A stretch of 64,000 bases of DNA from Escherichia coli (GTDB taxonomy: Bacteria; Pseudomonadota; Gammaproteobacteria; Enterobacterales; Enterobacteriaceae): the NCBI RefSeq assembly GCF_003018255.1, contig NZ_CP027440.1, one strand, 5' to 3'. Below, in pieces: positions 51,793 through 55,330 of this stretch. The position numbers were made by a program, and so were the translations under genes. The notes beneath the pieces were generated by a model, which had not been told where the DNA came from, did not search any database, and worked only from the letters and a program-made list of their open reading frames with translations. The stretch's first letter is position 1, and every line of letters starts with the position of its first letter.

Positions 51793-53067
51793 TTAACCCA
51801 GTAACGTGCGCAAATGCGCGGCTACGCTATCCTGCGCAACTGCCGTTTGCTCACCAGAGCGCAAATCCTTCACTACTGCTGTGCCGTTAGCCACTTCAGA
51901 CTCACCCAGCACCACAGCAACGCGGGCACCCCATTTATCAGCACGGGCAAACTGTTTCTTAAAGTTGCCGCCGCCGTGGTTGGTCATCAGTTTCACGCCC
52001 GGTAATTCATCACGCAGACGCTCTGCTAATGCCATAGCCGCAGATTGTGTATCAGCACCTGAAGCCACCAGGTATATATCGACAACAGGATCGGCCTTAA
52101 ATTCCGGATTAACGGCCTGAACTAACAATACAAGACGTTCGAGGCCCATCGCAAAACCGACAGCCGGTGTTGCACGACCACCCAGTTGTTCCACCAGACC
52201 GTCATAACGACCGCCTGCACACACGGTGCCCTGGGAGCCGAGACTGTTAGTCACCCACTCGAAAACGGTACGGTTATAGTAATCCAGACCACGCACCAGA
52301 CGCTGGTTGACGGTGTAAGCGATCCCCGCGCTCTCAAGCAGTTTGCACAGACCGGCAAAATGCTCACGAGATTCCTCGTCCAGATAATCGCCTAATGCCG
52401 GAGCGTCGTTGAGAAGCACCTGCACTTCCGGATTTTTTGAATCGAGTACGCGCAACGGGTTAGTGTACATGCGGCGTTTGCAGTCTTCGTCCAGCTTTTC
52501 TTTATGCTGCTCAAGGAATGCCACCAGCGCATCGCGGTAATTCGCACGAGCTTCCAGCGAACCGATAGAGTTCAGCTCAAGAGTTACGTGCTCGGAAATA
52601 CCCAGCGCGCGCCACCAGCGGGCAGTGAGCATAATCAGTTCGGCGTCGATATCCGGACCTTGCAGACCGAAAACTTCGCAGCCCAACTGATGGAACTGAC
52701 GATAACGCCCTTTCTGCGGACGCTCGTGACGGAACATCGGCCCGATATACCACAGACGCTGTTCCTGATTGTACAGAAGACCATGCTCGATGCCGGCGCG
52801 TACACAGCCCGCCGTCCCTTCAGGGCGCAGAGTCAGGCTGTCGCCATTGCGATCCTCAAAGGTGTACATCTCTTTTTCAACCACGTCGGTGACTTCACCA
52901 ATCGCACGTTTGAATAGCGGGGTCTGCTCTACAATCGGCAAGCGGATTTCACTGTAACCGTAGCTGCCGAGCACGTTTTTCAGTGTGCCTTCAATGCGCT
53001 GCCAGATGGCCGTTTCGCCAGGCAGGTAATCGTTCATGCCGCGAATGGCTTGAATGTTTTTTGCCAC
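51793..53067 (-). CDS. hisS: Histidine--tRNA ligase
   Basis: 424 aa; class II aminoacyl-tRNA synthetase motifs. Confidence 0.95.
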
Positions 53068-53177
53068 GTTTATTCTCTTTCTGAATATAAAAATGAACCC
53101 TCAACGCTTCCCTCAATGTTTCGGGAGCCATGCGGGTTCAATCATACACGGGAAGCGAGGCGCTTCCCATCACGTTA
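53068..53177 (-). ncRNA. sroE: Candidate SroE small RNA in the ispG-hisS spacer
   Basis: 110-bp spacer between co-oriented ispG and hisS; assignment from recalled K-12 annotation of SroE at this position, not from a structure computed here. Confidence 0.4.
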
Positions 53178-54296
53178 TTATTTTTCAACCTGCTGAACGT
53201 CAATTCGACGCGCTTCGTCCAGCTGACTGGCTTTCGCACGAATGCGCGCTTCCAGCTGATCGATCATATCGTTGTTGTCCAGACGGTCTTTGCGCACGCC
53301 ATCTTCATAGAGGCCGCTTTTCTTGTTGCCGCCGGTGACGCCGAGTGTAGAAACCAGCGCCTCACCAGGGCCATTCACCACGCAGCCGATAATCGAAACG
53401 TCCATCGGAGTGATGATATCTTCCAGGCGTTGCTCCAGCGCGTTAACCGTACCGATAACATCAAATTCCTGACGCGAACAGGTCGGGCAGGCGATGAAGT
53501 TGATCCCGCGCGAACGGATACGCAGCGATTTCAAAATATCGAAACCGACTTTGATCTCTTCGACCGGATCGGCCGCCAGCGATACGCGCAGCGTGTCGCC
53601 GATGCCTTCAGACAGCAGCAGACCTAAACCAATAGCGGATTTTACTGCCCCGCTACGCGCACCACCGGCTTCGGTGATCCCCAGATGCAGCGGCTGATCG
53701 ATTTGTTTTGCCAGCAAACGATAAGACTCAACAGCGAGGAAGACGTCAGACGCTTTCACGCTGACTTTGAACTGATCGAAGTTCAGGCGATCGAGATGAT
53801 CAACATGACGCATGGCAGATTCCAGCAACGCCTGCGGCGTCGGTTCGCCATACTTTTCTTGCAGATCTTTTTCCAACGATCCGGCATTAACGCCAATACG
53901 GATCGGAATGTTTTTATCGCGCGCACAGTCAACCACCATGCGAATACGCTCTTCATTACCGATATTGCCAGGGTTAATACGCAGACAATCGACGCCGTAT
54001 TCCGCTACTTTCAGCGCAATGCGATAGTCGAAGTGGATGTCAGCCACCAGCGGCACGTTAACCTGCTGTTTGATGAGTTTGAACGCTTCTGCCGCGTCCA
54101 TCGTCGGTACGGAGACACGGACGATATCAGCGCCAACACGTTCCAGCGCCTTGATTTGATTGACCGTTGCTTCGACGTCTGTCGTACGCGTATTGGTCAT
54201 GGACTGTACGGCGATGGGAGCACCATCGCCAATCGGCACATTCCCAACGTAAATACGTGTTGATTTTCTACGTTGAATTGGAGCCTGGTTATGCAT
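53178..54296 (-). CDS. ispG: 4-hydroxy-3-methylbut-2-enyl diphosphate synthase (IspG/GcpE)
   Basis: 372 aa; C-terminal Cys cluster (CPTCSR...GCVVNGPGE) of the 4Fe-4S domain. Confidence 0.95.
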
Positions 54297-54322: not shown

Positions 54323-55330
54323 TTACTGCGCCGGTGGTTGTTCGGCATTGAGGGTCAGACGCGCAACCTGGTTAGTTCTGATAAAACGACTCAGATCGAC
54401 AGGTTTCCCTTGATACTGGATCTGTACTGCGGCTGGCGCACCAATTTTCAGTTTGTACGGTGCCTGGCCGGTTAAGTTCAAATTACCGTCTTTACGCTGC
54501 ATACCGCTAAACAGTTTTTTACCGGTAGCATCGGTGACTTCCAGCCAGCAATCGGCAGTAAAGTTCATCACCAGCGCATTCGGGTCAACCGCCGGCGTGG
54601 TCACGCCAGCCTGATCGGTTGGCAACGGCGCAGCGCCATCTGGTGTTGTTGTTGCCGCTGGTGCCGGAGTCGCAGCGGTATCAACATTTGCCTGCGAAGG
54701 TGGAACAACCGCATTCTGTTGCGGATCAACAGCTGGTGCTGGCGCAGTTACGGCAGGTGTTTGCGTGTTGGTTGCGGTGGTATCCACAGGTGATGTCGGC
54801 GTGGTCGCCATAGCCTGATCTGTGGTTGTCGACGTATCTAACGGTACACTCTGGCTTTGATTATTATTCAGTTCCGCAGAAGATTGATCGGCCATAGTGG
54901 TGATCTCTTCCTGCTGAGCTTTGTGGTCTTGCCACCACCAGGCACCGCTCAGGCCAATAACCACAAACAATACCAGCCAGGTGAAGGTCATCAGCCAGCC
55001 GTCACGTTTTTTGCGGCGTTTACCGAGGGAAAAACTCTGCATCGGCGCAACTTTTGCAGCCCGTAGTGGAGCCTGCTTTTCCAGCCCTGGCAGCAGTTCT
55101 TCTTCTGGAATATGTACCAGACGCGCATAAGAGCGGATATATCCGCGCAGGAATGTTGAAGCAAGATCGGCGGGTGCCTTATCTTCTTCAATGTCGCGTA
55201 CCGTGGAAACCTTCAGGCAAAGTCGCTCGGCAACGGCCTGTTGACTAAGTCCTAGTTGTTCGCGAGCATTACGCAGGCGAGCGCCGGTAGTAAGTGCTTC
55301 ATTTTGGTCGTGCGTGGCTTCAGTATTCAT
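54323..55330 (-). CDS. rodZ: Cytoskeleton protein RodZ
   Basis: 335 aa; N-terminal HTH, single TM segment, Pro/Thr/Ala-rich periplasmic linker. Confidence 0.9.

Follow-up and report, generated by a model that had tools for sequence, protein, structure and literature searches.

SroE, the small RNA of the ispG-hisS spacer of Escherichia coli, is best explained as the stable tail of the ispG transcript, encoded by DNA that would serve at the same time as the ispG terminator and as the hisS promoter, with the RNA itself mainly a by-product; we give this reading a probability of roughly 60%. It is proposed that transcription arriving from upstream passes the ispG stop codon and forms one hairpin (hairpin 1) and then another (hairpin 2) followed by UUUUUAU. 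A fraction of the transcripts would terminate at this U-run, 19 nt before hisS, and the fragment between the two bounding hairpins would survive as SroE, its 5' end at the stop codon being a processing end. The hisS promoter would have its -35 in the 5' arm of hairpin 1, its -10 in the linker and its start at G53133, so that hisS mRNAs begun there would lack half of the terminator stem and could read into hisS unhindered. The conservation of the element would then reflect its duty as terminator and promoter.

Identity and fold of the spacer RNA

The window, a 64,000-nt stretch of E. coli DNA, carries rodZ (54323-55330), ispG, hisS, yfgM and bamB in this order on the minus strand (Table 1). The original prediction placed SroE in the ispG-hisS spacer, as an RNA of about 90 nt co-oriented with both genes. 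An Rfam covariance-model scan bears this out: RF00371 (sroE) matches 53178..53087 on the minus strand at 116.6 bits (E = 1.8e-28, model positions 1-92 of 92), more than twice its gathering score of 51 bits, and is the sole above-threshold Rfam match in the whole window. The K-12 MG1655 record has ncRNA sroE (b4761) in the same place and on the same strand, at 2640595..2640686 (-), and its geometry is that of the window: the length is 92 nt in both the Rfam model and the annotation, the 5' end is the final base of the ispG stop codon, and 19 nt separate the 3' end from the hisS GTG. ispG, SroE and hisS all lie on the minus strand, and the predicted spacer length of 110 bp is exact. Alignment to K-12 sroE, set beforehand as the test, gave 100% identity over 153 nt (53048-53200 against MG1655) and not the lack of identity that was to count against the idea. 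The spacer RNA is the already known E. coli sroE, the same gene in another strain; its sequence, length, strand, position between ispG and hisS and two-hairpin fold are all those of RF00371/b4761, with no difference.

A discrete RNA of ~90 nt was reportedly found in the original SroE screen of 2003 and has been catalogued since. In other RefSeq E. coli records only ispG and hisS are annotated under the match, sroE being absent from automatic annotation. The 310-nt stretch around the spacer occurs as a single copy in 5425 of 5426 complete E. coli genomes, many of them 100% identical. The spacer (116 nt) is at least 99% identical in 5396 of the 5425, against 4291 for the 310 nt including the flanks, so that within E. 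coli its conservation exceeds that of the coding flanks.

Table 1. Features of the ispG-hisS region, in window coordinates
Feature	Position	Strand	Remarks
ispG (gcpE) CDS	53178..54296	-	NF001540, 528 bits; stop TAA 53180..53178
hisS CDS	51793..53067	-	GTG start at 53067; TIGR00442, 521 bits
ispG-hisS spacer	53068..53177		110 bp, ispG stop to hisS GTG
SroE small RNA, 92 nt	53087..53178	-	Rfam RF00371 and K-12 b4761
Second published 5' end assigned to hisS	53444	-	inside ispG, 377 nt upstream; 4 reads (PMC3415461), exact mapping
Candidate -35 TGGGAA	53164..53169	-	3/6 to TTGACA; 17-nt spacer to -10
Hairpin 1, GGGAAGCG-CCU-CGCUUCCC	53150..53168	-	from fold; motif unique in window
Linker GUGUAUGAU	between hairpins 1 and 2	-	contains TATGAT
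-10 TATGAT	53141..53146	-	in GUGUAUGAU; +1 is the eighth base after the hexamer
Hairpin 2, outer stem UGAACCC/GGGUUCA plus inner stem	53094..53140	-	from fold
Published start site (G)	53133	-	66 nt upstream of hisS GTG; one base past hairpin 2 5' arm
Second GGGAAGCG copy (gcttccc on +)	53105..53112	-	within hairpin 2; pairs with GCUCCC 53128..53123
U-run UUUUUAU	53087..53093	-	abuts hairpin 2; SroE 3' end
Proximal hisS 5' UTR AUUCAGAAAGAGAAUAAAC	53068..53086	-	weak Shine-Dalgarno-like AGAGAA; conserved across Enterobacterales

The 92 nt of SroE fold into two hairpins at -40.1 kcal/mol (z = -4.73), and none of 200 shuffles was equally stable. The internal pairing potential claimed for the spacer (gcttccc...gggaagc) held in part: both heptamers are present (53106-53112 and 53150-53156 on the plus strand), but they are not each other's partners in the Rfam or the minimum-energy fold, and as a fold the pairing fails, the forced structure reaching -22.3 kcal/mol against -40.5 for the consensus, about 18 worse. 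In hairpin 1, CGCUUCCC (gggaagc on the plus strand) pairs instead with the adjacent GGGAAGCG at 53168..53161, while the outer arms of hairpin 2 join 53140..53134 to 53100..53094. A switch in which CGCUUCCC leaves hairpin 1 for the second GGGAAGCG copy was considered and given up: masking the whole 5' arm of hairpin 1 leaves hairpin 2 in place. The second copy occurs only in Escherichia and, in part, in Superficieibacter, and the genera without it include Citrobacter, Kluyvera, Pluralibacter and Enterobacter. An attenuator switch is rejected because the forced pairing is ~18 kcal/mol worse, hairpin 2 persists and the second copy is unconserved.

This result bears on the proposal that the element is a cis-acting leader or attenuator tuning hisS to histidine or tRNA-His, in the T-box-like manner suggested by Barquist et al. 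(2013). The element does sit directly 5' of hisS in every species having it and is required in transposon screens, a terminator-like hairpin ends it before the gene, and Escherichia has, in its second GGGAAGCG copy, another sequence with which the 3' arm of hairpin 1 could pair. In their position directly upstream of a synthetase gene and in the terminator-like hairpin at the end, T-box and other aminoacyl-tRNA synthetase leaders are similar to SroE; they differ in that SroE has no T-box match and no conserved sensor domain, and the hisS start lies inside its terminator hairpin. No T-box reached the gathering score in the window, and neither T-box nor any other cis-regulatory Rfam family appeared at E <= 10 in 52800-53500. 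The only possible sensor site, the interior of hairpin 2, differs by genus and is absent in Enterobacter, and with the mapped start neither hairpin 1 nor the 5' arm of hairpin 2 is part of the hisS mRNA. Nor does the region resemble an attenuator of the hisL type: the spacer frames hold no run of histidine codons, the two 10-codon frames seen by eye being unconserved with no and one His codon, respectively, and the alternative pairing is likewise unconserved, 18 kcal/mol worse, and fails to form when the 5' arm of hairpin 1 is masked. The requirement seen in transposon screens is expected of any promoter of an essential gene. Taken together, we regard a leader of this kind as very unlikely.

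A frame of 46 codons (52991-53131, minus strand) opens with an AUG 2 nt past the mapped start, carries 6-7 His codons (6 here) and overlaps the start of hisS out of frame. Its ATG is found in Escherichia and Citrobacter only. The His codons arise from NNC-AUN codon pairs of hisS, and because this pattern tracks lineage codon bias, the histidine richness of the frame is probably a coincidence.

The hisS promoter and the ispG terminator

Kim et al. 2012 (PMC3415461, Table S1) list a start at 2638663 (-) of NC_000913.2, obtained by 5'-triphosphate enrichment with 6 reads and assigned to sroE. Their 51-mer, the start with 50 nt upstream, maps exactly to 53133-53183 (-) of the window, so that the start falls on the G of Table 1. 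The sequence before it conforms to a sigma-70 promoter, TGGGAA-17-TATGAT with +1 at the eighth base, although a weak one, with 8 of 12 consensus positions and 6 reads. TGGGAA, which the 5' arm of hairpin 1 overlaps, is the putative -35 of the hisS promoter; every SroE-type species has TGGGAA, or TTGGGA with an 18-nt spacer, at the same position. A standard promoter and terminator scan of 52700-53700 called nothing, at thresholds that exclude -35 hexamers matching at 3 of 6 positions as well as long-loop hairpins (loops of 3-8 nt are counted). Immediately upstream, the last ispG codons and the stop (GAAAAATAATAAC, 53170-53186, minus strand) amount to an A/T-rich tract some 42 to 53 nt before the hisS start (about -42 to -53), the position expected of an UP element.

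The RNA that begins at 53133 is, unlike SroE, not significantly structured (-18.4 kcal/mol, z = -0.60) and has no hairpin beside the U-run, as would be needed for these transcripts to read into hisS. Cho et al. detected the annotated SroE 5' end with a 5'-monophosphate method, whereas the triphosphate method gave no start there (Kim et al. 2012, PMC3415461, Table S2); because of this combination the SroE 5' end fits a processed end. The same table flags the SroE start as 'upstream' of the sRNA, at odds with its own coordinate. At 53444, inside ispG, lies another 5' end published for hisS; it lacks a convincing -10 and is for this reason treated as weak.

Hairpin 2 (-21.7 kcal/mol) together with UUUUUAU has the form of an intrinsic terminator, with a d-score of +6.4 by an approximate form of the d'Aubenton-Carafa formula. 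In almost every SroE-type species a scan for hairpins with T-runs places the same arrangement 24-29 nt ahead of the GTG, and the d-score is positive in nearly all of them, the exceptions being L023 (-38.8) and L054 (-0.4, with a large insertion). A 3' end at the U-run is annotated for K-12 SroE, but the curated Term-seq lists of Adams et al. 2021, which cover three growth conditions, contain zero 3' ends in 2640500-2640799; termination at the U-run may therefore be weak. Within hisS, Adams et al. 2021 do report strong 3' ends, which lie at 2640434 and 2640283 of K-12; by offset these correspond to window positions 52926 and 52775 (-), 141 and 292 nt past the start codon.

Conservation and equivalents in other families

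The locus was collected from 80 species with HisS as query, and ispG lies directly upstream of hisS in all 80. Matches to sroE at the Rfam cut-off were confined to Enterobacteriaceae proper, with 19 among the first 23 loci; the Rfam scan returned none in Yersiniaceae, Erwiniaceae, Pectobacteriaceae, Hafniaceae, Morganellaceae, Orbaceae and the first Vibrio loci. The last batch of 20 loci, mostly Vibrionaceae, was assessed by eye in place of the Rfam scan; its spacers of 17-104 nt look unrelated, with the exception of a Yersinia locus (L074) whose spacer has 411 nt.

The invariant blocks of the Enterobacteriaceae alignment are the arms of hairpin 1 around a free 5-nt centre, GTGTATGAT(T)GAACCC, GGGTTCATTTTT, and AAAGAGAATAAAC before the GTG; the linker GTGTATGAT is unchanged in 22 of 22 spacers. 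Hairpin 1 is paired in 100% of cells and six of its seven pairs are invariant, so the stem is near-invariant and the loop free. The outer stem of hairpin 2 is paired in 98% of cells, and its interior differs by genus in sequence and length, folding in every case. Three Enterobacter species have lost the interior, leaving a short hairpin with 6-8 T (for example AACCCA-TTCT-TGGGTT-T8), and this reduced hairpin 2 has the sequence of a canonical intrinsic terminator. For covariation, the shuffle controls were not significant and one compensatory pair was seen; since the stems are almost invariant, covariation speaks neither for nor against the fold.

The arms of hairpin 1 are both invariant beyond what a -35 hexamer needs, which counts against the reading as terminator and promoter. 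One could take GGGAAGC-N5-GCTTCCC as a DNA operator, bound by a dimeric regulator over the hisS -35 and spacer, with the RNA hairpin incidental. Invariant arms around a free 5-nt centre are commoner in protein-binding palindromes than in RNA stems, which would tolerate compensatory changes; the repeat overlaps the hisS promoter, and the single variant, L024, retains the symmetry. The change in L024, the lone compensatory one in hairpin 1 (G-C to U-A), is however just what an RNA hairpin predicts as well; no regulator is known for the repeat, the motif occurs once in the window, and related families have unrelated GC-rich hairpins with T-rich tails at this place, which points to a hairpin function. 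We consider such an operator highly improbable.

Outside the range of sroE the hisS promoter takes the form TTGAAN-18-TATAAT, located 31-38 nt before the GTG or farther where the spacer has extra sequence. Its carriers are Serratia, Rahnella, Yersinia, Pectobacterium, Brenneria, Dickeya, Edwardsiella, Photorhabdus, Proteus and Budvicia, and weaker variants are seen in Hafnia (TTGATG-17-CATAAT) and Morganella (TTGCGC-17-TATAAT). A small hairpin with a T-rich tail, right behind ispG, precedes the promoter in Yersinia, Photorhabdus and Proteus; in Rahnella, Pectobacterium, Edwardsiella and Serratia plymuthica the promoter sits in the loop of a large homologous GAACCCG...CGGGTTC hairpin ending in a T-run. 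Because both elements recur across other families of Enterobacterales, an ispG terminator and a hisS promoter appear to be the general content of this spacer. Aligned by eye, the E. coli spacer reads as though an inner stretch with the -10 had been deleted, joining GCGTTGA to GGGTTCA.

Spacers shared by the terminator of an upstream gene and the promoter of a downstream one are a known arrangement, and Yersinia, Photorhabdus and Proteus have it in its plain form. Enterobacteriaceae differ from such plain pairs in that the two signals are interleaved, the promoter preceding the terminator hairpin and firing into it; Rahnella and Pectobacterium differ in that the promoter is located in the hairpin loop. 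In Tatumella and Pantoea (L037, L038, L039 and L043), upstream of position 2501, there is an unrelated hairpin, CCTGTGCGG...CCGGACAGG followed by T7, about 23 nt before hisS. The 3' half of this Erwiniaceae hairpin contains a TATGAT some 35 nt ahead of the GTG, seemingly a further case of a promoter nested in a terminator hairpin.

Four species carry spacer insertions of 80-200 nt (L006 at ~2340-2425, L049 at ~2335-2460, L054 at ~2310-2470 and L074 at ~2165-2355), which have strong folds, resemble one another in sequence and leave the flanking conserved blocks intact. Their sequence appears to match the core of ERIC elements (enterobacterial repetitive intergenic consensus). The insertion lies in the loop of hairpin 1 in Pseudocitrobacter, in the loop of hairpin 2 in a Klebsiella sp., and within the TATA of the -10 in Photorhabdus caribbeanensis and Yersinia thracica.

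SroE as a regulator or as a by-product

SroE might have a regulatory role, as a trans-acting, Hfq-associated sRNA derived from the ispG 3' UTR, with the linker GUGUAUGAUUGAACCC as seed and hairpin 2 with the U-tail as the Hfq module. Its layout is the usual one of that class (a 5' hairpin, a conserved single-stranded stretch, and a terminator hairpin with a U-tail), the linker is invariant, SroE has been named in the literature among the Hfq-bound sRNAs of nitrogen-starved cells, and ligB is reported as one weak partner in vitro. The 3' UTR-derived Hfq-dependent sRNAs CpxQ and SroC are close parallels, as they too begin at or near the upstream stop codon, end in a hairpin with a U-run and contain a conserved single-stranded stretch. 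SroE differs from both in having no validated target, in that its conserved stretch coincides with the -10 of a promoter, and in having a downstream gene within 20 nt, so that its '3' UTR' doubles as promoter and leader region.

The remaining evidence runs against a trans-acting function. Nine of ten predicted targets were unbound in vitro and the tenth, ligB, was the weakly bound one; overexpression is described in the literature as without phenotype for biofilm, motility and fimbriae; and no (ARN)x Hfq motif was found. The hisS -10 and discriminator explain the conservation of the linker equally well, reads assigned to 'sroE' are indistinguishable from those of the hisS 5' UTR or the ispG 3' UTR, and the Term-seq lists hold no 3' end for the RNA. 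The SroE level is described as constant across conditions. We judge a trans-acting SroE of this type to be unlikely. That SroE or the hisS leader is a real regulator, be it an Hfq-bound RNA acting in trans through a linker seed or the 46-codon frame of Escherichia and Citrobacter sensing histidyl-tRNA supply, is in our estimation distinctly unlikely.

The reading of the spacer as terminator and promoter accounts for a further observation. In Salmonella, transposon insertions in SroE are not tolerated (Barquist et al. 2013), and this is expected because the region would hold the promoter of the essential hisS gene. Terminator and promoter duty would in the same way explain the conservation of the spacer and the scant findings of functional screens, and we infer from it the status of the RNA as a by-product. 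The conserved blocks of the orphan RNA SroE fall together with a promoter and terminator serving two essential housekeeping genes, which would explain in a simple way that no function for SroE itself has emerged from twenty years of screens, and RNA-seq or pull-down reads that are assigned to sroE may derive from the hisS 5' UTR.
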